NCBI GenBank assembly: GCA_003693875.1
Contig: RFLO01000041.1
Span: forward strand, 1-28,470
Reading direction: 5' to 3'
From: Candidatus Pacearchaeota archaeon
Lineage (GTDB): Archaea; Nanobdellota; Nanobdellia; Pacearchaeales; GW2011-AR1
Length of the DNA: 28,470 bases
The translations under genes were made by a program, and so were the position numbers. Of the stretch, positions 12,511 through 23,643 are shown in pieces. The first letter of the stretch is position 1, and every line of letters starts with the position of its first letter. Under the pieces are notes generated by a model, which was not told the DNA's origin, searched no databases, and was given only the letters and a program-made list of their open reading frames with translations.

Positions 12511-12531
12511 CTCATGCACATTGTCAAAAAA

Positions 12532-13602
12532 ATGGATTTAAGCATTGTAATCCCAACTTACAACGAAAAAGACAACATAAAAAATATTGTTCAAAAAGTA
12601 TTATCAGAATTCAAAAAAAACAAAATAAAAGGCGAGTTGATAATAGTAGATGATAATTCTCCAGATGGAACGGGCAAAATTCTGGATAACCTGAAAAAAT
12701 CTGAAAAAAGATTAATTGTAATCAAAAGAAAAGCAAAGCTTGGACTCTCCTCTGCGGTCCTTGATGGGTGGAAGGTTGCTCGTGGAAATGTCCTTGGAGT
12801 TATGGATGCCGACCTGAGCCATCCGCCTGAAAAGATAATAGAACTCTACAACCCCCTAAAAAAAGGAGATGCAAATATTGCAATAGGAAGCCGATACATT
12901 CCGGGAGGAAAAATAATCGGTTGGGGAATAAAAAGAAAAATGATGTCAAGAGTTGCAACCCTTCTCTCAAGAGTTTTCACTGAAGTCCGCGACCCTATGA
13001 GTGGGTTTTTTCTTGTAAAAAAAGAATGTATTAAAAATGCAGGTCTAAATCCTCGCGGCTTCAAAATACTCTTAGAAGTCTTAATAAAATGCAAATCCCT
13101 TAAAATAAAGGAGGTTCCAATCACCTTTACTAACCGCATAAGGGGAAAAAGCAAGGCAGGGATAGGAGAAGTCCTGTCACTTCTTAAAAATCTTGCAGGT
13201 TATTTAAAATACAAAAAAACAGTCATAAACGAATTTGTCAAATTCGGAATTGTGGGCACAACAGGGGCAATAATAAACCTCTCCATCTTGTACTTGTTAA
13301 CTGAAAAATTGGGATTATACTACATCCTCTCTGCAATAATCTCATTTCTCGTGGCAATGTCTTCCAATTTTTTCTTAAACAAGATATGGACTTTCAAAGA
13401 AAAAATCAAAATACAAATCAAAAAGAAATATCTAAAATTTGGAGTTGTGAGCACATTTTCTCTTTTGGTGAATTTAACTTTTCTATACATATTTACTGAA
13501 GTTTTCGGAATCTATTACCTAATCTCGCAGGCAATAGCAATAGCAATAGCGTGGTTGCTCAATTTCATTGGAAATAAAATCTGGACATTTCAAAATAACT
13601 AA
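12532..13602 (+). CDS. GT2 polyprenol-phosphate glycosyltransferase (DPM1/GtrB-like) fused to a GtrA-like membrane domain
   Basis: SIVIPTYNE, IIVDDNSPDGT, VMDADLSHPP, DPMSGFF, followed by FVKFGIVG...NFFLNKIWTF GtrA-type helices. Confidence 0.93.
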   Translation: MDLSIVIPTYNEKDNIKNIVQKVLSEFKKNKIKGELIIVDDNSPDGTGKILDNLKKSEKRLIVIKRKAKLGLSSAVLDGWKVARGNVLGVMDADLSHPPEKIIELYNPLKKGDANIAIGSRYIPGGKIIGWGIKRKMMSRVATLLSRVFTEVRDPMSGFFLVKKECIKNAGLNPRGFKILLEVLIKCKSLKIKEVPITFTNRIRGKSKAGIGEVLSLLKNLAGYLKYKKTVINEFVKFGIVGTTGAIINLSILYLLTEKLGLYYILSAIISFLVAMSSNFFLNKIWTFKEKIKIQIKKKYLKFGVVSTFSLLVNLTFLYIFTEVFGIYYLISQAIAIAIAWLLNFIGNKIWTFQNN

Positions 13603-13610
13603 AAATTAAG

Positions 13611-15044
13611 ATGAAAAAAGAATCAAAAATATTAATCATTCTCTTCTTAATGTCTTTTGTAATAAGATTTGTTTTTATTCTCTCAACACCACTGAAAATC
13701 TGGGATGAAACAGTCTACTCAAATCTTGGTTACGACTTATCAAAAGACCCCTTTGATTACTCGGTTTCAAAAAACGGTTGGAGTGACTTTATCCCTTCAA
13801 GTGACAAATTATATGCCTGGCCAAGAATGGGCTTTAGGGCGCCGGCCCTTCCTTACGCAATCGCACTCCTCTATACATTTGGAATAGGAAACTTCTCGGA
13901 TATTTTCATATCACTAATTGGAGCTGCGTCTGTCTGCTTAGTTTATGTTCTTGGAAAAGAAATGTTTGGAAAAGAAGCCGCAATCTACTCCGCCCTGTTC
14001 TTTTCCTTAATCCCCCTACATGTATTGAATAGTTCAAAAATTATGACGGAAGCCCCCTTTACATTTTTCGTCATTCTAACATTTATTAGCTTTTGGAAGG
14101 GATACGAAAAAAACGACAACAAAAACAAAATTCTTTTTGGATTTTTCCTCTCTTTATCCCTTTTGTCAAGATACACTGCCCTCTGGATTATGCCAGTATT
14201 TCCTCTATACTTCCTAATAAGAGATTCCTCACTTAAATTTCTAAGGGACAAATACTTATGGTATTCCGTTGCAATATTCTTCATAACCCTAAGTCCGTGG
14301 CTTCTCTATGGGGTCTTTGAGTATCAAAACCCTATTGGCCCCTTTATTCATGGGGCAAAGGCGGCATCTTACTGGGGGGGCTCACAACCACCTTACTTTT
14401 TCTTAATTTATTGGGTACCTATGTTTTCCTTGACTGGATTAATCTTTCTTACATCCCTAATCTACATCCCATTAAAAAGATTATACAAAAAAGAAATACT
14501 GCTTCTAATAATCTGGACAATACTCTTTATTGGGATTGCAAGTCTGATTCCCCACAAGGAAGGGCGATTCATAATTGCAGCCGCCCCGCCAATATCCCTA
14601 ATCTCTGGATATGTAACAACGCAAGCTGGCAAATACAAGAAACCAATTATAGCCCTAACAATAATTGCAAGTATTGTAATCCTTTCATTAAATTTTTACA
14701 CAACCTACAAAAACTCTTACACCCCGACAAACATTTGCTTTCTTAAGGGAAACGAGTTCCTAAAAAACCAAGAAAGGGAAATAATCTTAACCGACGAGTC
14801 AAGCATAGTTTACCATTATACAAAAAAAATAACACGCTTCTATCCACGACCATTAAATATCAGCTCGTTAAAAAAAATAAAGGACCAAAACCCTGGAAAA
14901 AAAGTTCTTGTATTCTTCACAGATTTTGACATGCCCCTAAACAGAAAAGAAAATTTAGAATTCAAGAAAAGTCTTGACAAAAACCTGTTAAAGATTTGGG
15001 GATGTGGCAAACCAGAAGAAAGGGCTGCAATTTATGAACTCTGA
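13611..15044 (+). CDS. GT-C fold membrane glycosyltransferase (ArnT/PMT-like)
   Basis: WDETVY in the first loop, many TM helices, IMTEAP, HKEGRF, and a soluble C-terminal domain. Confidence 0.85.
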   Translation: MKKESKILIILFLMSFVIRFVFILSTPLKIWDETVYSNLGYDLSKDPFDYSVSKNGWSDFIPSSDKLYAWPRMGFRAPALPYAIALLYTFGIGNFSDIFISLIGAASVCLVYVLGKEMFGKEAAIYSALFFSLIPLHVLNSSKIMTEAPFTFFVILTFISFWKGYEKNDNKNKILFGFFLSLSLLSRYTALWIMPVFPLYFLIRDSSLKFLRDKYLWYSVAIFFITLSPWLLYGVFEYQNPIGPFIHGAKAASYWGGSQPPYFFLIYWVPMFSLTGLIFLTSLIYIPLKRLYKKEILLLIIWTILFIGIASLIPHKEGRFIIAAAPPISLISGYVTTQAGKYKKPIIALTIIASIVILSLNFYTTYKNSYTPTNICFLKGNEFLKNQEREIILTDESSIVYHYTKKITRFYPRPLNISSLKKIKDQNPGKKVLVFFTDFDMPLNRKENLEFKKSLDKNLLKIWGCGKPEERAAIYEL

Positions 15045-15152: not shown

Positions 15153-15581
15153 ATGAGAAAAGCCCTCTCACCCGTGCTTGCAACAGTCTTCTTGGTTCTC
15201 TTTGTGATGATCTTAGGAGTAATTATCTATCTTTGGGCTCAGGGCTTTCTTGAAGAACATCTGGAAAAATTCGGCAGACCAATAGACAGCCTGTGTTCAG
15301 AAATAAAATTTGATGCAAAAAAAGTCGCAGGTCAAAAAAATCAAATAGAAATTACTAACCGCGGCAACATAGACATCTTTAAGTTCTCAATAAAAATAGA
15401 AAAAGACGGAGACACGAAATTTGAAGATTTTGAATATTCTGCTCCGGCAAGGGGCTCAGCAAGGGGAGATTTCGGAATAATCGGCAAGAAAGCAACAATC
15501 TATCCAGTAATAATCGGAAAATCGGGCTCAAAAAACAAGATTTACACATGCATAAACAACGGAAAAACTATCAACCTGTAA
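15153..15581 (+). CDS. Archaeal type IV pilin
   Basis: MRKA|LSPVLATVFLVLFVMILGVIIYLW canonical archaeal pilin N-terminus. TTTAAAAA at 15124-15131. Confidence 0.88.
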   Translation: MRKALSPVLATVFLVLFVMILGVIIYLWAQGFLEEHLEKFGRPIDSLCSEIKFDAKKVAGQKNQIEITNRGNIDIFKFSIKIEKDGDTKFEDFEYSAPARGSARGDFGIIGKKATIYPVIIGKSGSKNKIYTCINNGKTINL

Positions 15582-15641
15582 AGCAGAACAAAAACTAACA
15601 AAGCATATCGCCAGTTTCAACTCCCTAAATAATTATTATTC

Positions 15642-15659
15642 CTGCTGCAAAAGTAGCAG
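15642..15659 (+). terminator. Small stem-loop between pilin genes (possible terminator or processing hairpin)
   Basis: CTGCTGC-AAAA-GTAGCAG, 7 bp with one G-U pair. No clear poly-U tail. Confidence 0.25.
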
Positions 15660-15736
15660 CCATTTGTTGATAAAAGGCAGAACGCAACGGGCATAAATAG
15701 AGAAAAGTTTAAAAATGATACATGTTTAAAGCTAAT

Positions 15737-16228
15737 ATGAACAAAAGAGGTATATCGGCAATTGTTGCAACAGTCCTCATAATTCTTATAACTGTTGCGG
15801 CAGTAGCAATTGTCTGGTCTGTTATAATCCCCCTTATAAACAATTCAATAAAGGGCAGTTCTGTTTGCTTCGATGCATCAACCTCTCTTACAATAATCGG
15901 AGGATCTAAAACTTGCAAAACAAAGGATAATGTGTCCATAACAATTTCCCGCTCATCAAGAGACTTCAAGTTAGAAGATATACAGATCCAGCTAATAAAG
16001 TCAGATGGGGACTCCATATCAGTTAATGCAAAAAATCTATCAATAAAAAAAGGTCTCCCTGGAATAAATGAACAAAGAGTATTCATAATTAACAAAACAG
16101 ACGTAGGAAAAACCACCGACCTTAACAGTATTCAATCCGTAAAATTTGCACCCATAGTCATTACAAGCGATGGAGAAAAAAAGACATGTGATGCTTCTGC
16201 TGGGAAGGCAGTTCCCTCCTGTCAGTAA
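15737..16228 (+). CDS. Archaeal type IV pilin
   Basis: MNKRG|ISAIVATVLIILITVAAVAIVW. TTTAAAAA at 15708-15715 supports the start at 15737 (track start 15722). Confidence 0.9.
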   Translation: MNKRGISAIVATVLIILITVAAVAIVWSVIIPLINNSIKGSSVCFDASTSLTIIGGSKTCKTKDNVSITISRSSRDFKLEDIQIQLIKSDGDSISVNAKNLSIKKGLPGINEQRVFIINKTDVGKTTDLNSIQSVKFAPIVITSDGEKKTCDASAGKAVPSCQ

Positions 16229-16258
16229 TCTTTTATACCCCTTATTCTTTTAAGATTA

Positions 16259-16843
16259 ATGAAAAAAGGGATTTCGCCGCTGGTTGCCACTTCTTTCCTG
16301 ATAGTAATTGTAATGATAATTGCAACGATTATCTGGTTCTTTCTTTCTGCAAAATTTGGCCTTGAAGCCCGTCTTGCTTATGAATGCAAAAAGGCGTCAA
16401 ACCAGTTAAAACTCGTTGACACCTGCAAATACTCTAAGGTAGGCACCAGAGCAGAAAACATCTCGGTCATAATAGAAAGAAAACCAACAGAAGAGGCGGC
16501 TTCCATAAAAGACATTCAGCTGATAGCAAGAACCAAACTAAACGAAAAGTTTTCGGCAAGAATTGCACCCCTCTACGGAAAACAATCAATCCCCAAAGTT
16601 GGAAAAAGAAAAAGATACGACATAAATGTCTCGGGATTAATCCTTTACTTGACTCACTTAGGAATCGCTCCAATAATCGAAATTGAAGGAAAAGAAAGAA
16701 TATGCAACATCCAAGATGAACAAAGGATATGCTGGTGTGAAAATTTCATAAAAGAAGTAGAAAACGTAAACAAATCAATTGCTGCATACCTTAGAAGATG
16801 CCAAAAGCCAAAAGGCGATCCGCTAAAGGGTAAGTGGAGCTAA
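16259..16843 (+). CDS. Archaeal type IV pilin
   Basis: MKKG|ISPLVATSFLIVIVMIIATIIW. TTTTATA at 16231-16237. The stop lies inside a tandem duplication. Confidence 0.88.
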   Translation: MKKGISPLVATSFLIVIVMIIATIIWFFLSAKFGLEARLAYECKKASNQLKLVDTCKYSKVGTRAENISVIIERKPTEEAASIKDIQLIARTKLNEKFSARIAPLYGKQSIPKVGKRKRYDINVSGLILYLTHLGIAPIIEIEGKERICNIQDEQRICWCENFIKEVENVNKSIAAYLRRCQKPKGDPLKGKWS

Positions 16844-16855
16844 AGGGTAAGTGGA
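16822..16855 (+). repeat. Perfect 17-bp tandem duplication GCTAAAGGGTAAGTGGA x2
   Basis: Copies at 16822-16838 and 16839-16855 are identical. Confidence 0.95.
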
Positions 16856-16933
16856 AAACTGCCCCACCATCCGGCACACAATGATGAGCAAAGATGAAGT
16901 TAAATATATAAATCACTAAACATAACAAATCAC

Positions 16934-17452
16934 ATGAAAAGGGGGCAGGTTTGGGTTGAAACGGTCATCTATACACTTATTGGTCTTGCGATAATTGGTA
17001 TTGTCTTGGCGCTTGTAAAACCAAAGATAGATGAAAAAAAGGACATAGCAGCAATTGAACAGGCAATAGATTCTCTAAACATCCTTGACTCAAAAATCTT
17101 TGAAATCCAAACAATTCCAGGGAATAAAAGGGTAGTTACATTGAAAATTGGAAAAGGAGATCTCCTAATAGATGCTGAAAACGACGCTATAACATGGGAG
17201 CTGGAGTCAAATACACAATATAGCGAAGTAGGGAGTATAATAAAGATAGGTGACTTAAACGTCTTAACAAAAATAGATGGTAATCTCTGGAAAGTTTACA
17301 TACAGGCAAACTACTCATCAATAAACCTAACATACAATGGAGTTGACAAAACAACCCAGGTCCTAAGCGCTGCAAAAAACCCTTACAAGATTACCCTTGA
17401 AAATGTCGGAAAACAAAATAGAAAAACGGTAATTGACATTGGAGGTTTCTGA
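16934..17452 (+). CDS. Pilin-like protein (KRG|QVWVE), first gene of the pilus assembly operon
   Basis: MKRGQVWVETVIYTLIGLAIIGIVL class III signal with Glu at +5. TATA-like AAATATATAAA at 16902-16912. Confidence 0.85.
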   Translation: MKRGQVWVETVIYTLIGLAIIGIVLALVKPKIDEKKDIAAIEQAIDSLNILDSKIFEIQTIPGNKRVVTLKIGKGDLLIDAENDAITWELESNTQYSEVGSIIKIGDLNVLTKIDGNLWKVYIQANYSSINLTYNGVDKTTQVLSAAKNPYKITLENVGKQNRKTVIDIGGF

Positions 17453-18981
17453 TGGGAGATGTAAAGATTAACCTTAATCCAAAAAAACCACAGCTAACTC
17501 CGCTGTCGGATAAAACAAAGATAAATCTTCGTTACATGGTAATTGAACCATTTGTTTCAATTCACATCCACTGGGAACCAAAATCAGGCGAACTGATCTA
17601 CGAAGTAGAAGAACCCTTAATGGATGAAGAGGATGTAAAAAACCTCGAAAGTATAGAAAATTCTATGAGAGAAATCGTAAGCATCAACATGCTCCAGGAA
17701 AAAAGAACAATAGAAAGCCTCTTAGATTATGTTGAAAAAACCGCAAAACTCATCATATCAGAATTAGGATTAGAGATTGAAGAAGAAAAATTCCCAAAAA
17801 TAATTTACTATCTTTATCGAGACTTCATAGGCTTAAACGAAATAGAACCAATGATGCAGGACTGCTTCATAGAAGACATTGAATGCAACGGCGTAGGGGA
17901 GCCAATTTACATTGTCCACAGAATCTTCAGAAACCTGAAAACAAATGTAAAATTTACTTCAATAGAATCCCTTTCAAGCTTTGTTGAAAAAATGGCTCAA
18001 AAGGCAGGACGCTATATTTCCTATGCAAGTCCAATTCTCGATGGCAGTCTGCCAGATGGCTCGCGTGTAAACGCAACATATACAAAAGATATAACTTCTA
18101 AGGGCCCAACATTCACAATAAGAAAATTTACAAAAACACCTTGGACACCTACGCAATTGCTCGGTTTCCGCGAACTCTCCCCGGAAATGCTTGCTTATTT
18201 CTGGATTCTCTTGGAATATCAGTCCAACATAATGATTATCGGTGGGACAGCTTCTGGAAAAACCACGCTCTTAAACGCAATTGCTTTCTTCATACCTCCT
18301 GAAAAAAGAGTAGTTTCAATTGAAGACACAAGAGAACTAAACTTGCCAAGAGAAAACTGGCTACCCTCCGTAGTTCGCACAGGGCTAACATCTACGGGCG
18401 TTGGTGAAGTAGACATGTTTAGCTTGCTCCGCGGTTCATTCCGCCAAAATCCAGACTATGTAATCGTTGGAGAAGTTAGAGGAAAAGAAGCCTCTGTTCT
18501 CTTCCAGGGAATGGCATCCGGGCACGCATCAATTTCAACTATGCACGCAGATTCTGTTGAAGCTGTAATAAGAAGACTCGAAACGCCTCCAATAAATTTA
18601 AGCCCGATGCTCGTAAATAGTCTCGACGCTGTTGCAATAATGGCTCACGCAATAGTCAAAGGACATGAAACAAGACGCTTAAGGGAAATATCTGAAGTAG
18701 TCCAAATACTGCCCGACGGGACAGCGACAACAAACACTCCTTTTATCTGGGACCCTGCAACAGACACGTTCAGATTTCAGGCAAAAAGCGCTGTTTTCAC
18801 AAAAATCTCAAGAAAATATGGGATTAATCTGAGAAGTCTTGAAGACGAATTCCAAAAAAGAGCAAAATACCTGAGAGCTCTCTTCAGATACAAGATACTA
18901 AGTTACGAGACAGTCCAAAAATACATAAATGCCTACCAAAAAAATCCCGTTGGCATGCTTAAAAAATTCGGCATATACTAA
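17452..18981 (+). CDS. Type IV pilus/T2SS assembly ATPase (VirB11/TadA/FlaI family)
   Basis: IEDIECNG, LPDGSRV, GPTFTIRKF, Walker A GGTASGKTT, SIEDTREL, Walker B VIVGEVRG, STMHA. Confidence 0.96.
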   Translation: MGDVKINLNPKKPQLTPLSDKTKINLRYMVIEPFVSIHIHWEPKSGELIYEVEEPLMDEEDVKNLESIENSMREIVSINMLQEKRTIESLLDYVEKTAKLIISELGLEIEEEKFPKIIYYLYRDFIGLNEIEPMMQDCFIEDIECNGVGEPIYIVHRIFRNLKTNVKFTSIESLSSFVEKMAQKAGRYISYASPILDGSLPDGSRVNATYTKDITSKGPTFTIRKFTKTPWTPTQLLGFRELSPEMLAYFWILLEYQSNIMIIGGTASGKTTLLNAIAFFIPPEKRVVSIEDTRELNLPRENWLPSVVRTGLTSTGVGEVDMFSLLRGSFRQNPDYVIVGEVRGKEASVLFQGMASGHASISTMHADSVEAVIRRLETPPINLSPMLVNSLDAVAIMAHAIVKGHETRRLREISEVVQILPDGTATTNTPFIWDPATDTFRFQAKSAVFTKISRKYGINLRSLEDEFQKRAKYLRALFRYKILSYETVQKYINAYQKNPVGMLKKFGIY

Positions 18982-20348
18982 TGGCGAATCTTCATATAGG
19001 ATTCCCTTATCCTTTCCCTTTCAGCTTCTACAAGGCGCTCAACCTCTTCGTAATCTGAACCAACAGCAATAATTCTTGCAAGATCATGCGGCACATCAAA
19101 GCCTGGAAGAAAAGTTCCCCTTTCTGGAAAATTCAAAACAGAACTACGGGCTCCTCTGCCATCAAAAATAGACCTATCATCGTAGATGGGGTCAATATCT
19201 TTTGTAATCTTGGCCCTTCCATAGGTCTTAAAAATCCTCATAGCCCAACAGATATTCTTATCAGGCTCCCATAAATCCTCCTCGCCAATCTCCATGCCAA
19301 GACTAGCATAAAGCTCCATTTCAGAAATTGAGAGTCTATTAGATGGTCTGTTAGCCTCAAGACTTGCAACAAGAATTGATGTTGACCGATTTTTTCGTGC
19401 ATTAATCTCACTAAAAAGAACCCTTCCGTCCTCTGTTACAATCCAATCAAAGCCACAAAAACCAACATAGCCCTCCTTTCGCATAACCTCTGCAAGTTTA
19501 ATGCTTGCCTTTCTTATCTCCTCCTTTGAACGAGAATCAATTCTTGAAGGAAAAATATTTCCAAAATAATTGACATCTCTTACAATTATCTGGTCACTAA
19601 GTCCGAGATAATAAACTCTATCCCTTGAAATCAACACCTGTGAATTGGGTGAAGCAATTTTTCTTTCCCAAGCAGTCATCAAAAAAGGAGGTGAAGCTTC
19701 AAAATCGGAAATCTCCTCGAGATTCCTAAGATGTTTGGCAGACCTCCCACCGGCACCGCGAACAGCAGTCATAAACACCCCGTCTTCCGAATTAGAAAAA
19801 ACATTCCTAAAATTATCCATTGCCTCTTCAAAGGAATTCGCAACAACTCCGTAAGGCACACCAATCCCAAGTTCCCTTGCCAAATTATATGAAAAAATCT
19901 TGTTTGAATACTTTCGTGCAAGATTCCCATCTGCCCCAAGAACAAAAAACCCGAGTTCGCGAAGCTTCTCTATCGTAGGAGTCGTAGAATAGGAATTAAA
20001 AACTATCTTCCTGCCGTCACGAATGTCTTCAAGCTTACGGCTAACCTCCCGTTTAAAACTTTCCGCAGAATCTTTCCATTTAAAGTCTATCTTTTCTCCA
20101 CGCAACGGACAATCACCCCCTGACTCAACAACCAACCGATGCAAACAGCCTTCGCTTAAGGGAAGACTCATACGGCTCCGAGTAAAACCACCATAAGCAA
20201 CCTCAACCCTTTTAAGAGACCTATCTGCATAATTCCCCCCATTAACTGTAACAATTAAATCTGGAAAGCCAATGTCGCAGGTAAGGCTGCCTATATGGGT
20301 TGGATCCTTTCCCATCGCAATAAGGCAGTATTCACTTTCAAGGGACAT
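18978..20348 (-). CDS. ATP-grasp ligase, PGM1/pre-ATP-grasp peptide-ligase-like
   Basis: NKIFSYNLARELGIGVP, GAGGRS loop, SPNSQ...DQ...YFGNIFPS, GYVGFCGFD, EINAR. Confidence 0.8.
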   Translation of the reverse strand: MSLESEYCLIAMGKDPTHIGSLTCDIGFPDLIVTVNGGNYADRSLKRVEVAYGGFTRSRMSLPLSEGCLHRLVVESGGDCPLRGEKIDFKWKDSAESFKREVSRKLEDIRDGRKIVFNSYSTTPTIEKLRELGFFVLGADGNLARKYSNKIFSYNLARELGIGVPYGVVANSFEEAMDNFRNVFSNSEDGVFMTAVRGAGGRSAKHLRNLEEISDFEASPPFLMTAWERKIASPNSQVLISRDRVYYLGLSDQIIVRDVNYFGNIFPSRIDSRSKEEIRKASIKLAEVMRKEGYVGFCGFDWIVTEDGRVLFSEINARKNRSTSILVASLEANRPSNRLSISEMELYASLGMEIGEEDLWEPDKNICWAMRIFKTYGRAKITKDIDPIYDDRSIFDGRGARSSVLNFPERGTFLPGFDVPHDLARIIAVGSDYEEVERLVEAERERIRESYMKIRH

Positions 20349-20360
20349 CGCAGTAAAAAG

Positions 20361-20378
20361 ATTTTTAAACTTAAAAAT
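20361..20378. promoter_or_regulatory. Compact bidirectional promoter / inverted repeat ATTTTTAA-AC-TTAAAAAT
   Basis: Plus-strand TTTTTAAA (20362-20369) and minus-strand TTTTTAAG (20377-20370) each end 22 nt before ATG 20391 and 20348. Confidence 0.7.
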
Positions 20379-20390
20379 TTTTCCGAAAAA

Positions 20391-21386
20391 ATGAAAGCAG
20401 ACCTCCCATACTACTGGTGTCGCGATAGCATAGACCGCAACATAATTCTAAACGAAGCAGCAAGAAGGGGAATAGAAATAGAACCATTTCCACAAAGCCA
20501 AGGATACTTTCTATTAACATTTAAGGGCCACAAAGAAATTCTGGGTTATTTAAACACAAGTTCTCTTGGATGGCTCGCAGGCAGAATTTCAAAAAATAAA
20601 AGACATACAAAATGGCTTTTAAGAAAAGAGGGGGTAAAAACCCCAATAGGGGACGCATTCAAGAAGGGAGAAGAGGGCAAAATATCCGATTGGGTAGCTG
20701 AAAAAAAAGTTATAGTAAAACCAAACAAAGGGGCTTGCGGAAAAAATGTTTATCTATGTAAAGATGCCTACGAAGCCATTCAGGCAGCAAAAGAAATCTG
20801 GAACTCCGGAAGTCCAGCGGCATTGGTAGAGGAGTTTTTTCCTGGAAAAGAGTACCGAGTTTTTGCAACAAGGGAAGGCTTTGTTGCTGTATGCAACCGC
20901 GTTCCCGCAAATGTCATCGGAGATGGTCGCTCAACAATAGAAGATTTGGTAGAAGAAAAAAACAAGGATAGGGGCCCTCCTGAGGAGCATTATGTTTGGC
21001 TTCCAATAAAAATTGATAATGTTGTAATTGAATTTTTAGAATCTCGGGGAAAAAACTTGAAATATGTTCCAAAAGAAGGGGAACAGGTTTTCCTGCGGGC
21101 AAACAGCAATTTATCAACCGGCGGAGACTCAATCACAATACCGCGAGAATCTCTCGATAAAAAAGTAGAAGATATCGCAATGAGATGTCTTTTTGCAGTG
21201 CCGGGAATGGCATACGCTGGAATTGACCTTATCTGCGAAGACATAAGAGGCTTTGACGACTACCGAGTAATTGAGATAAATAAATCTCCGGGAATGACTA
21301 ACCACCATTACCCAAATTTCGGAGAGCCTCAAAATGCCGCAGGCGCCCTCATCGACCAAATCTTTCCAGAAACAAGAGGATTGTAG
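20391..21386 (+). CDS. Stand-alone ATP-grasp ligase, cyanophycin synthetase N-domain / GshF(GshAB) C-domain-like
   Basis: EAARRGI, VIVKPNKGACGKNV, LVEEFFPGKEYR, RVPANVIGDGRSTIEDL, NSNLSTGG, AGIDLI, IEINKSPG. The true start is probably Met33 of the track ORF. Confidence 0.88.
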   Translation: MKADLPYYWCRDSIDRNIILNEAARRGIEIEPFPQSQGYFLLTFKGHKEILGYLNTSSLGWLAGRISKNKRHTKWLLRKEGVKTPIGDAFKKGEEGKISDWVAEKKVIVKPNKGACGKNVYLCKDAYEAIQAAKEIWNSGSPAALVEEFFPGKEYRVFATREGFVAVCNRVPANVIGDGRSTIEDLVEEKNKDRGPPEEHYVWLPIKIDNVVIEFLESRGKNLKYVPKEGEQVFLRANSNLSTGGDSITIPRESLDKKVEDIAMRCLFAVPGMAYAGIDLICEDIRGFDDYRVIEINKSPGMTNHHYPNFGEPQNAAGALIDQIFPETRGL

Positions 21387-21398
21387 ATTTAAATCCTC
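21376..21398 (+). terminator. Inverted repeat spanning the ATP-grasp stop codon (possible terminator hairpin)
   Basis: GAGGATT-(9 nt)-AATCCTC. Confidence 0.25.
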
Positions 21399-21431
21399 AA
21401 CATTAATAAATGCCACTCACCTCTTTTTTTA

Positions 21432-21593
21432 ATGGTTGACCTGCTATTTGTTGAACATCTGATAGACTCAATGTATTCTGCAACAATAAAACTTGAAAAG
21501 GCAATCAAGGAAAACCGGCCAGAAGAGATAAGCAAGTTAAGAACAATGATATTTCACCTCCAACAAAACCTTGACAAGGTTACAAAAATCTAA
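21432..21593 (+). CDS. 53-aa amphipathic helical protein upstream of the platform genes (MVDLLFVEHLIDSMYSATIKLEKAIKENRPEEISKLRTMIFHLQQNLDKVTKI)
   Basis: Open frame from ATG 21432 to TAA 21593, 2 nt before the next ATG. TTAATAAA at 21403-21410 ends 22 nt upstream. Helical-hairpin pattern. Not in ORF track. Confidence 0.75.
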   Translation: MVDLLFVEHLIDSMYSATIKLEKAIKENRPEEISKLRTMIFHLQQNLDKVTKI

Positions 21594-21595
21594 AA

Positions 21596-22819
21596 ATGCT
21601 TGAAAATATAAAGGAAAATTTAAGGCAGGAAAAATTGCTAATTGAGAAAGCAAGAGTTCTAAGAAAGGCTATGCTTCAAAATCCTGAAAAAAAACAAATT
21701 TACAAAAAAAGCATCATAGCAATCCTCAACCAGATAAACCTCCTAAACAGAGCCTTGCCAGAATTGTTAAAAGAAACCTCCCCCTTAAAAACAATACAAA
21801 GAAAAAATCCAGTTCAGATAACTCACAAAACACCTGAGAAAAAAAGAGTTATCACAATAAATCGCGAAGATAAAAAGCGGTATCTCGAAGAGCTTCGGTT
21901 ATCAGAAGAAGGGCTGGCAGCCATAAGAAAGTCGCATCAGGAAGAAAAAATTGTCCAGACAAAACCAAATGAATTTGCAAGACTCTCCAATAAGGTTTTT
22001 AGACGATACTCAGAAAAGTTAGCGCCAAAGATGAAAAATCTGGCAGAGGACCTAAAACGCGGAAATGTTCCATTTCTTCTCTCAACCTATATTTCAATGG
22101 CGATAATGTCAACACTTATAAGCTTCATCACAGGAGCATTAATCTTCGTAACACTTGTCATAGCCGACCCATCAAAAGTAATTCTCTTCTGGATTCCAAT
22201 TGTCTTGCCACTCATAACCCTCTTTTTGTTCTACATCTATCCAGCAAGCGAAGCCTCTTCGTCTAAAAAAAGAATCTCTCAAGAACTTCCTTTCGTTGCA
22301 ATACATATGGCCGCTATCGCCGGTTCGGATATAGAACCATCAAAAATATTTAGAATCATTGCCGAATCAAAGGAGTACCCCAGCATAGGAGCAGAACTAA
22401 AAAAAGTCCTTTCACAAGTAGAAATATACGGTTATGATCTTGTAACATCCCTTAAAAATGTGGCAAGGCTCACATCAAACGAAAAATTAGCAGAGCTTTT
22501 TAATGGACTTGCAACAAATATCAGCACAGGAGGGGAACTAAAAGATTACCTCGAAAAAAAGGCTGAAACCTTTCTTATGGACTACAAACTCGAAAGAAAA
22601 AGATACACCGACCTTGCAGGAACTTTTATGGATATCTACATCTCCATCTTAATCGCAGCACCACTAATCCTGATGATGGTCTTCATAGTTATGAATATAT
22701 CTGGCTTAACCATTGCTGGCCTTGGAATAAACACGCTACTTGCAATAAGCATCGCTGCAATAGTCCTTGTAAATGTCATATTCCTCGTCATCCTCTCAAT
22801 AAAACAACCAAAGATATAA
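21596..22819 (+). CDS. Type IV pilus platform protein (TadC/FlaJ, T2SSF family) with about 150-aa soluble N-terminal extension
   Basis: ISQELPFVAIHMAAIAGS, YGYDLVTSLKNVA...LAELFNGL...TGGELKDYL, plus TM helices. Confidence 0.9.
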   Translation: MLENIKENLRQEKLLIEKARVLRKAMLQNPEKKQIYKKSIIAILNQINLLNRALPELLKETSPLKTIQRKNPVQITHKTPEKKRVITINREDKKRYLEELRLSEEGLAAIRKSHQEEKIVQTKPNEFARLSNKVFRRYSEKLAPKMKNLAEDLKRGNVPFLLSTYISMAIMSTLISFITGALIFVTLVIADPSKVILFWIPIVLPLITLFLFYIYPASEASSSKKRISQELPFVAIHMAAIAGSDIEPSKIFRIIAESKEYPSIGAELKKVLSQVEIYGYDLVTSLKNVARLTSNEKLAELFNGLATNISTGGELKDYLEKKAETFLMDYKLERKRYTDLAGTFMDIYISILIAAPLILMMVFIVMNISGLTIAGLGINTLLAISIAAIVLVNVIFLVILSIKQPKI

Positions 22820-23643
22820 TGGCAAAACTAAGATACTTGGCAGGAATTCTGATTCTCCTTGCAGCAGTCGCTGTAGAATTTTTCACAATAAGTCAGAAGA
22901 ATACAAGAACTTTTATCATTGTGATAACCATCATTCTTTCTTCTCTGCCCTTCATAATTTCAATTATCATTTCTCAAAAACGGCAAACGGAAAAAGAAGA
23001 AAGATTCCTTGAATTCTCGCGTGACCTTGTGGAAAGCACAAAATCCGGAACCCCTATTGTCAAAGCAATACTAAATGTTCAAAAAAAGGACTACGGCACC
23101 CTAACGCCCCACATACAAAAACTTGCAAGCCAGCTAACTCTTGGAATAACACTAAACGATGCACTCCAAACCCTTGCAAGGGAATCAGGAAGCCGAGTTA
23201 TAGCAAGAGCCGTAGCCCTTATATCCGAAGCTGAAAGAGCCGGGGGAAAAATTGAAACCATCCTTGAGTCAGTCGCAAATTCCGTAAATCAAATAGAATC
23301 CCTAAAAAAAGAAAGAAAATCTTCTATCGCAAACCTGATAACTCAAGGTTACATCATCTTCATTGTTTTCATAATAATCATGTTAATCCTTGAATTCAAA
23401 ATTCTACCGCTTGTATCCGATGTAACCGCTCCGTCAGACAACATCAAAATAAAAGCGCGCCCACTCGCACCACAGGATTTTTCAAAGCCGCTTTTCATAA
23501 TGCTAATTATTCAATCACTGTTCGCAGGAATTGTAATCGGCAAAATATCCGAAGGCTCCATTAAATACGGAATAAAGCATTCTTTTATCCTATTGTCCCT
23601 AACTCTCCTTGTCAAAACAGGGGCAAATGCCTTCTTCGGATAA
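22819..23643 (+). CDS. Second TadC/T2SSF platform protein
   Basis: FLEFSRDLVESTKSGTPI, DYGTLTP, LISEAERAGGKI, AGIVIGKISEG. TAATG coupling. Confidence 0.9.
   Translation: MAKLRYLAGILILLAAVAVEFFTISQKNTRTFIIVITIILSSLPFIISIIISQKRQTEKEERFLEFSRDLVESTKSGTPIVKAILNVQKKDYGTLTPHIQKLASQLTLGITLNDALQTLARESGSRVIARAVALISEAERAGGKIETILESVANSVNQIESLKKERKSSIANLITQGYIIFIVFIIIMLILEFKILPLVSDVTAPSDNIKIKARPLAPQDFSKPLFIMLIIQSLFAGIVIGKISEGSIKYGIKHSFILLSLTLLVKTGANAFFG

Follow-up and report, generated by a model that had tools for sequence, protein, structure and literature searches.

A pair of ATP-grasp ligases inserted in a type IV pilus locus of a Pacearchaeota genome as a candidate cassette for small-peptide synthesis

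What would two different ATP-grasp ligases produce when their genes stand head-to-head in the middle of a type IV pilus locus, and has the product anything to do with the pilus? This question is raised by contig RFLO01000041.1 of a Candidatus Pacearchaeota archaeon (assembly GCA_003693875.1), of which positions 1 to 28,470 were analyzed (hereafter the window). Among the window open reading frames (ORFs), the two divergent genes, herewith designated ligase 1 (P0001) and ligase 2 (P0002), lie between the pilus assembly ATPase gene and the pilus platform genes. An earlier note on this DNA had described them as two different ATP-grasp ligases facing each other over 42 bp within the pilus locus, and the coordinates, the catalytic residues and the pilus genes were all confirmed (Table 1). 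After analysis of the residues, the relatives and the gene neighbours of both enzymes, we lean with moderate confidence towards a horizontally acquired two-gene cassette for the stepwise, ATP-dependent synthesis of a small Asp-X(-Y) peptide.

Catalytic and substrate-binding residues of the two ligases

Ligase 1 is a divergent ATP-grasp protein, in which the catalytic residues K150, D301 and E314-x-N316-x-R318 are conserved. Its best NCBIfam matches are to the LdmS model (1.1e-9) and the BesA model (1.8e-4), the former with 37.6 bits against an equivalog cut-off of 475 bits. In a single-sequence search of the PDB, LdmS was the nearest characterised protein (7r8p, 2.3e-4), and the match to the peptide ligase PGM1 (3wvq) was not significant (E 0.78). 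The AlphaFold2 (AF2) model of ligase 1, with a predicted local distance difference test score (pLDDT) of 94.6, was compared with known structures, giving tied fold scores of Z 24-27 for PurD, PurT, biotin carboxylase, the 8ynd peptide ligase, PGM1 and BesA; the comparison confirms a generic three-domain ATP-grasp fold and gives no indication of the substrate. Given the PGM1 match at E 0.78 and a fold score tied with those of unrelated ATP-grasp enzymes, the label 'PGM1-like' proposed in the earlier note turned out to be loose.

The substrate is better indicated by individual residues. In LdmS, the side chain of L-Asp is held in a polar cavity of Gln244, Tyr252, Asn255, Asn307 and Ser309, together with Arg305 that binds its alpha-carboxylate, and mutation of these Asp-pocket residues leads to loss or strong reduction of activity (PMC9486568). 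All six are identical in ligase 1, where Q253, Y261, N264, R318, N320 and S322 align with LdmS Gln244, Tyr252, Asn255, Arg305, Asn307 and Ser309, respectively. The full set was found in 17 of the 40 aligned members of the ligase 1 family, including 14 of the 17 closest, and in distant members the pocket is replaced by another signature. Since the pocket residues are identical to those of LdmS and kept in the close family, ligase 1 is predicted to activate L-Asp or a close analogue, and we infer that L-Asp, or something very like it, is its substrate.

Ligase 2 belongs to the ATP-grasp superfamily with Pfam matches to ATP-grasp_3, GARS_A and RimK above the cut-off and with invariant R156, E295 and N297. 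It matches the cyanophycin synthetase model TIGR02068 (1.2e-58; 198.9 bits against a cut-off of 850; positions 163-474 of 862) and the GshAB model NF002688 (1.5e-56; 192 bits against a cut-off of 425; positions 436-755 of 756), both matches being confined to the ATP-grasp part. In the PDB the best agreement was with 7wac (2.8e-37), over residues 169-484 that make up the whole G domain of CphA1, and with 3ln6 (1.9e-31); ligase 2 also matches 7ta5 (2e-22) and 8fxh (2e-19), chains of about 630-640 amino acids (aa) that we take to be CphA2-type enzymes, although the depositor names do not say so. In addition, the model for N-acetylglutaminylglutamine amide synthetase matches ligase 2 at 4.7e-39. 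A search of the window's own genome with the RimK family did not recover ligase 2 and was set aside. The three-domain architecture of CphA1 (N, G and M) is absent, as the 331 aa of ligase 2 comprise the ATP-grasp part only.

According to the structure of TeCphA1, three residues discriminate CphA1 from GshF, namely Glu215, His267 and Arg458 in CphA1 versus Leu, Tyr/Phe and Met/Tyr in GshF; within the CphA1 G domain, Glu215 recognises the Arg side chain of the primer, His267 on the P-loop stabilises the acyl-phosphate and Arg458 binds the incoming Asp (PMC9427784). When ligase 2 was mapped on TeCphA1 (7wac), these positions were occupied by Arg65, Cys116 and Thr303, so that neither the CphA1 set nor the GshF set is present, and the equivalents of catalytic Arg309 and Gly456 are kept (R156 and G301). 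Across 36 members of the ligase 2 family the three discriminating positions are highly variable and the catalytic core is invariant; the stand-alone bacterial relatives with Phe/Leu/Tyr form a separate clade. Because the catalytic residues are kept and the discriminating residues are replaced, ligase 2 appears to be an active enzyme of the CphA-G/GshF clan with a specificity of its own, distinct from both CphA1 and GshF. The earlier description of ligase 2 as cyanophycin-synthetase/GshF-like therefore stands for the stand-alone family match, but does not extend to the specificity residues of either family.

Conservation of the pair and its shared promoter region

The head-to-head arrangement is also present on no fewer than two further contigs, and probably on a third, at 43-53% identity. 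On an archaeal contig of 42.7 kb, the gene for P0005 (43% identical to ligase 1) adjoins a divergent ATP-grasp gene of 332 aa; in locus L001, which carries P0003 (47% identical to ligase 1), the divergent neighbour shares 53% identity with ligase 2 over its first 47 residues; and the divergent neighbour of P0004, truncated at 281 aa, makes a pair likely. In the ligase 1 tree, P0001, P0003, P0004 and P0005 form one clade with 98% support in the Shimodaira-Hasegawa-like approximate likelihood ratio test (SH-aLRT). The L001 partner also served to set the start of ligase 2: the longest form of the plus-strand ORF begins at 20295, but the N-terminus of this partner aligns with P0002 from residue 1 (53% over 47 aa), and the homologue-matching ATG at 20391 was therefore taken as the start.

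Outside the pair-bearing clade, the loci of P0125 and P0126, of a Peribacteria genome and of two Gammaproteobacteria have no ligase 2 neighbour. The ligase 1 family is small, since a search of 1.8 billion proteins yielded only 13 cluster representatives at E≤1e-30, and scans of metagenome and genome contigs with this family gave five loci only, with no further pairs. Complex prediction for ligase 1 and ligase 2 gave a score of 0.00, which was taken as evidence neither way.

The 42-bp spacer holds two TATA-like boxes abutting each other, TTTTTAAA on the plus strand (20362-20369) and TTTTTAAG on the minus strand (20377-20370), the centre of each lying about 25.5 nt from the ATG of its gene, and an inverted repeat, I18 (20357-20368 / 20371-20382). 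A comparable AT-rich divergent spacer separates the pair in L001. Under the spacing rule for archaeal TATA boxes, this geometry is expected for leaderless transcripts, and the distance between box and ATG therefore gives candidate leaderless, co-located transcription starts for both genes. The layout of the spacer implies leaderless and joint expression, and both ligases would be made together because one compact bidirectional promoter drives both genes.

It could be argued that the two enzymes merely travel together, each with its own product (for instance two dipeptides) and without a common pathway, as ligase 1 relatives do occur alone and ligase 2 relatives pair with several different ligases. 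We consider this unlikely, since the head-to-head order and the short common promoter region are kept within a clade of only 43-48% identity, a conservation that is hard to explain without selection on co-expression. The comparison supports, within this one clade, the view that the two genes constitute a functional unit for amide-bond formation.

The following route can be proposed for such a unit. Ligase 1 would phosphorylate the alpha-carboxylate of L-aspartate, or of a similar small acidic amino acid, and couple a second amino acid to give Asp-X, as does LdmS. Ligase 2 would then activate the C-terminal carboxylate of Asp-X and add one amino acid to give Asp-X-Y, in the manner of the GshF module or the CphA1 G domain; the reverse order of the two steps may also be considered. 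Arg65 of ligase 2, at the position where CphA1 has Glu215 for holding a basic side chain, would suit an acidic donor peptide. The product might serve as a compatible solute, a redox peptide, a storage peptide or otherwise.

Several observations weigh against this proposal. The alignment of LdmS with ligase 1 extends over only about 90 residues at about 28% identity. For Arg47 in the N-terminal domain of LdmS no ligase 1 counterpart was mappable, the N-terminal domains being not alignable by sequence, and in LdmS it is this residue that binds L-Met together with a hydrophobic N-loop cavity (PMC9486568). With the profile of the ligase 1 family, biotin-carboxylase-type chains score slightly above LdmS, up to 5.6e-10; every one of these biotin-carboxylase alignments ends at the Arg, beyond which ligase 1 follows the LdmS pattern R-x-N-x-S. 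Finally, some relatives with 38-44% identity to ligase 1 have no ligase 2 beside them, and for this reason ligase 1 can work alone.

Insertion at the pilus ATPase junction

For analysis of the link between the pair and the pilus, the ATPase was searched in 36 genomes of the same genus, of which 35 hold it, and in 30 genomes of the same family, of which 27 hold it, with orthologues of 58-75% identity across family and genus; a total of 40 loci with the ATPase were fetched, 29 from other species of the genus and 11 from other genera of the family. In none of the 40 does either ligase stand beside the ATPase. Many of the same-genus loci show the order pilin, ATPase, 37-130 bp, orf53 and T2SSF without ligases, and in 12 of them (among L054-L082) the ATPase is followed directly by orf53 and T2SSF. 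Among the loci from other genera, the first T2SSF gene lies within a few hundred bases after the ATPase in 7 of 11, and in the other 4 no T2SSF was present within the 1.5 kb fetched. Moreover, a search of 400 other genomes of the order, among them 35 species from the genus and 355 from the family, gave no match to ligase 1 at E≤1e-30.

The same junction between ATPase and orf53 carries other cargo in sister species: a helix-turn-helix (HTH) protein and a weak match to HEPN, inserted ahead of orf53, in L066; a lectin-like Laminin_G_3 protein in L063; an RNA methyltransferase in L070; a radical S-adenosylmethionine (SAM) protein in L080; and two unknown ORFs in L081. Within the genus, this junction looks like a recurrent hot spot of insertion or rearrangement.

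The right edge of the insert could be fixed with the 11-mer ACATTAATAAA, which occurs only once in the window. It recurs between ATPase and orf53 in L054, L058, L059, L062, L068, L071-L073 and L077, and upstream of the ATPase in L055-L057, L059, L061, L065, L066 and L068; in many species of the genus its copies stand about 25 nt before the start codons of orf53 and the ATPase, and it may represent a genus-typical TFB recognition element (BRE)/TATA element for leaderless genes. Since the box recurs between ATPase and orf53 in the same-genus loci, the native promoter of orf53 survives to the right of the insert, and since this box begins at 21400 the insert has the approximate limits listed in Table 1. 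The 1-kb bins that cover the cassette (18001-21000) have a GC content of 0.41-0.42, versus 0.354 and 0.370 in the adjoining bins. A search for flanking repeats or a target-site duplication found a single repeat near both cassette edges, the 5-nt TAATG. As a junction duplication it was rejected, because ATPase and orf53 of the same genus stand 37-130 bp apart without overlap and because the right copy is native, being part of the orf53 leader downstream of the ACATTAATAAA box.

The earlier note had further supposed that the ligases might acylate pilins. In this explanation one or both enzymes would modify by acylation the N-terminus that pilin processing exposes, or lengthen a protein terminus as do PGM1 and RimK, and it draws on the position of the cassette between the pilus ATPase and platform genes, on the RimK-type Pfam match of ligase 2, and on PGM1 (the pheganomycin peptide ligase, 3WVQ/3WVR), which has the same three-domain ATP-grasp fold as ligase 1 (Z 24.4-24.6). 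The position, however, is not shared by any of the 40 loci nor is ligase 1 by the 400 genomes of the order, the junction accepts unrelated cargo in sister species, and on the contig of P0005 the pair has genes of RIO1, SRP54, FtsY, PHP and ribosomal proteins for neighbours and no pilus gene nearby. The likeness to PGM1 does not extend to a significant sequence match, no PGM1-specific Pfam family is among the matches, and the cassette contains no precursor peptide gene, as the earlier note had said; indeed, there is no room for one, the spacer measuring 42 bp and the stretch from P0002 to the orf53 box about 13 bp. The relatives of ligase 2, furthermore, are found in metabolite-type clusters. 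Altogether, modification of pilins or other proteins is very improbable. The pair is a lineage-specific, horizontally acquired insertion at a junction tolerant of insertions, and a functional tie to pili is not supported. Of the co-occurrence and pilus linkage across genomes that the earlier note had proposed as a check, the former was observed in one clade of 98% support but the latter is absent in the 40 loci; likewise, its two-step amide-bond system is retained as to the conserved unit, with which small-peptide synthesis fits, but not as to pilin acylation.

Table 1. Features of the ligase cassette and of the surrounding pilus locus (positions in the window)
Feature	Position	Strand	Basis
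Ligase 1 (P0001), 456 aa, three-domain ATP-grasp carboxylate-amine ligase with LdmS-type aspartate pocket	18978-20348	-	ORF, translation, family matches, AF2 model
Divergent promoter region, 42 bp	20349-20390	.	Sequence reading
Ligase 2 (P0002), 331 aa, stand-alone ATP-grasp protein, cyanophycin-synthetase G-domain / GshF clan	20391-21386	+	Family and PDB matches, residue mapping, tree
Inserted cassette, about 2.4 kb	18982-21399	.	From ATPase stop to orf53 promoter box ACATTAATAAA (21400-21410)
Pilus assembly ATPase (T2SSE/PilB-like), host context, outside the system	17452-18981	+	Pfam T2SSE 2.4e-31
orf53 (53 codons) and two T2SSF platform genes, host context	21432-23643 (T2SSF 21596-23643)	+	Pfam T2SSF; synteny in relatives
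Four pilin-like ORFs with class III signal	15153-17452		Upstream of ATPase

At the left edge, the stop codons of ligase 1 and the pilus ATPase overlap by 4 nt. The genome assembly to which the window belongs totals 516 kb in 47 contigs, with a completeness of 70%, and the window also carries genes of eL42, eS1 and aIF5B type. In the sequencing-run search the stretch was matched in one run only, a hot-spring metagenome that is the likely source, and no RNA run holding it was found. Further pilin-like ORFs are present around the pair. The fourth of the upstream pilin-like ORFs (16934-17452) gave a weak Pfam match to the PCC_BT domain of propionyl-CoA carboxylase (E 1.2e-5, barely above the cut-off), which is probably spurious on an ORF with a class III signal. 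The pilin genes are directly preceded (12514-15044) by genes for a GT2 glycosyltransferase that carries a GtrA-like membrane domain and for a protein resembling PMT-family mannosyltransferases; both could be involved in glycosylation of pilins or other surface proteins.

Neighbours of the relatives, known systems and the proposed product

The surroundings of ligase 2 relatives bear on the kind of product. The tree of 40 family members places ligase 2 in an archaeal clade of eight with 98% support, and every member of this clade with known neighbours adjoins another carboxylate-amine ligase together with tailoring enzymes. An alanine dehydrogenase (AlaDH)-like gene and a YheCD/STM4014-type ATP-grasp gene stand beside the ligase 2 relative in L017, L024 and L025 and, by ORF layout, in L018; in L019 the YheCD-type gene is seen and the upstream side is cut off. 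Two archaeal-type contigs (L051:274-3656 and L052:865-4290) carry a class I glutamine amidotransferase, a ligase-2-like ATP-grasp protein, a GNAT acetyltransferase and a YheCD-type ATP-grasp protein, an enzyme set that resembles that for N-acetylated, amidated dipeptide osmolytes such as N-acetylglutaminylglutamine amide (NAGGN). On two DPANN-like metagenome contigs, L026 and L027, a GCS2-type ligase and an EgtC-like amidotransferase are encoded beside the ligase-2-like gene, and a bacterial relative, L023, lies in a cluster of 7TM-transglutaminase/RimK type. The recurring theme appears to be a G-domain-type ligase combined with a second, variable ligase and acting on small molecules; it is seen in DPANN archaea and, among bacteria, in at least one locus that is probably from Patescibacteria. 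Small-peptide synthesis by the present pair fits both these contexts and the enzyme families concerned.

Among the same relatives, in the region L026:4806-7754, the GCS2-type ligase gene overlaps the start of the gene for P0012, a stand-alone GshF-type ATP-grasp protein, after which comes the EgtC-like amidotransferase gene; P0012 shares the P-loop Cys with ligase 2, and a glutaredoxin gene lies 1.5 kb away. The L026/L027 cluster may represent a split pathway for a glutathione-like or other thiol peptide in a small archaeon. For the genome of the window, a glutathione-like reading was rejected: GCS2 (PF04107), the sole glutamate-cysteine ligase family searched genome-wide, was not found in this 70%-complete genome, and the glutaredoxin-domain genes present are too widespread to be informative. 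A fourth context was seen in L020 and L021, from two genomes (G315 and G338) of the class to which the window's genome belongs, in which ligase-2-like genes are flanked by a DUF3419 protein, an ORF of 175-226 aa and a SAM methyltransferase. Neighbours of 407 aa and 349 aa beside ligase 2 relatives were examined as hidden homologues of ligase 1, but turned out to be GCS2 and YheCD-type proteins.

As to the neighbours of ligase 1 relatives, an Amidohydro_2 gene in the region L041:6001-8137 overlaps the end of the gene for P0126 and another is located four genes away from that for P0005, so that Amidohydro_2 may be a recurrent partner. In an uncultured gammaproteobacterium (L047:3665-6212), a relative 32% identical to ligase 1 is encoded directly downstream of a Peptidase_S51 gene and an alpha/beta hydrolase gene. 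The Peptidase_S51 family includes Asp-X dipeptidase and cyanophycinase, and this neighbour fits with an Asp-dipeptide product.

The Peptidase_S51 gene is also compatible with a storage polymer, in which ligase 2 would polymerise the dipeptide made by ligase 1 into a cyanophycin-like poly-amino acid from a split, minimal enzyme set. CphA2 polymerises beta-Asp-Arg, the CphA1 G domains are the closest match of ligase 2, and ligase 1 carries the Asp pocket. Ligase 2, however, lacks the CphA1 N domain, which helps to hold the growing polymer, and has R65, C116 and T303 in place of Glu215, His267 and Arg458. In agreement with the earlier note, which had listed no Mur-ligase, gamma-glutamylcysteine ligase or cyanophycinase beside the pair, none of these families was detected among the window ORFs scanned. 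Polymer synthesis is thus quite improbable, and the Asp-X(-Y) peptide remains the reading that we prefer.

Comparison with characterised systems indicates what is familiar in this proposal and what is not. LdmS, the L-aspartate--L-methionine ligase of Staphylococcus aureus (7R8P/7R8Q; PMC9486568), is, like ligase 1, a stand-alone ATP-grasp enzyme of the L-amino-acid-ligase type, and shares with it the Asp pocket and the catalytic Arg, all six residues being identical over the aligned segment; LdmS has been reported from Firmicutes only, with the HmrA peptidase as its partner, whereas ligase 1 is paired with a second ligase. Ligase 2 covers the whole G domain of CphA1 (7WAC, 7LG5; PMC9427784), from which activation of a peptide C-terminal carboxylate would be the expected chemistry, but it is devoid of the N domain and the Mur-ligase-like M domain. 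Its similarity to GshF (GshAB; 3LN6, 3LN7) is equal to that to CphA1 (192 versus 199 bits). The logic of GshF, in which the C-terminal ATP-grasp module adds a third residue to a dipeptide from a different ligase, is proposed here too, although ligase 2 has no fused or neighbouring glutamate-cysteine ligase and carries Arg, Cys and Thr at the discriminating positions instead of Leu, Tyr/Phe and Met/Tyr.

The use of two successive ATP-dependent ligases for building a short peptide is already known in kind, GshA and GshB being one example. Another is rhizocticin, a tripeptide assembled by two different ATP-dependent amino-acid ligases, RhiM and then RhiC, with neither a ribosome nor a nonribosomal peptide synthetase taking part (PMC13579937). 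RhiM and RhiC belong to bacterial antibiotic clusters with precursor-supply genes; here the two ligases stand alone, are of other subfamilies and occur in an archaeal genome of about 0.5-0.9 Mb. What is new is that an LdmS-type Asp ligase is paired with a stand-alone ligase of the CphA-G/GshF type, that the two genes occur as a mobile cassette in DPANN archaea, and that ligase 2 has its own set of specificity residues. Our literature search found no published description of this pairing, in line with the earlier note, which knew of no description of the combination.

The analysis removes a tempting but unsupported link to pilin modification, and exposes the junction downstream of the pilus ATPase as a recurrent insertion site in the genus. 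With genomes of only 0.5-0.9 Mb, such DPANN archaea are believed to rely on hosts for most metabolites; a self-promoted, horizontally acquired and ATP-consuming ligase pair in such genomes therefore suggests that some small peptide is worth making. Wider readings, which we regard as rather doubtful, are that the pair is a minimal split relative of cyanophycin/glutathione synthesis making an aspartate-based oligomer or tripeptide in DPANN archaea, or that ligase 1 caps protein N-termini with Asp; more broadly, the stand-alone G-domain ligases of DPANN archaea and of the candidate phyla radiation (CPR) might form a modular 'second-step' toolkit with interchangeable first-step ligases of GCS2, YheCD and LdmS type. 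If true, the toolkit reading would mean that organisms regarded as nearly devoid of biosynthesis make a whole family of small peptides not yet known.

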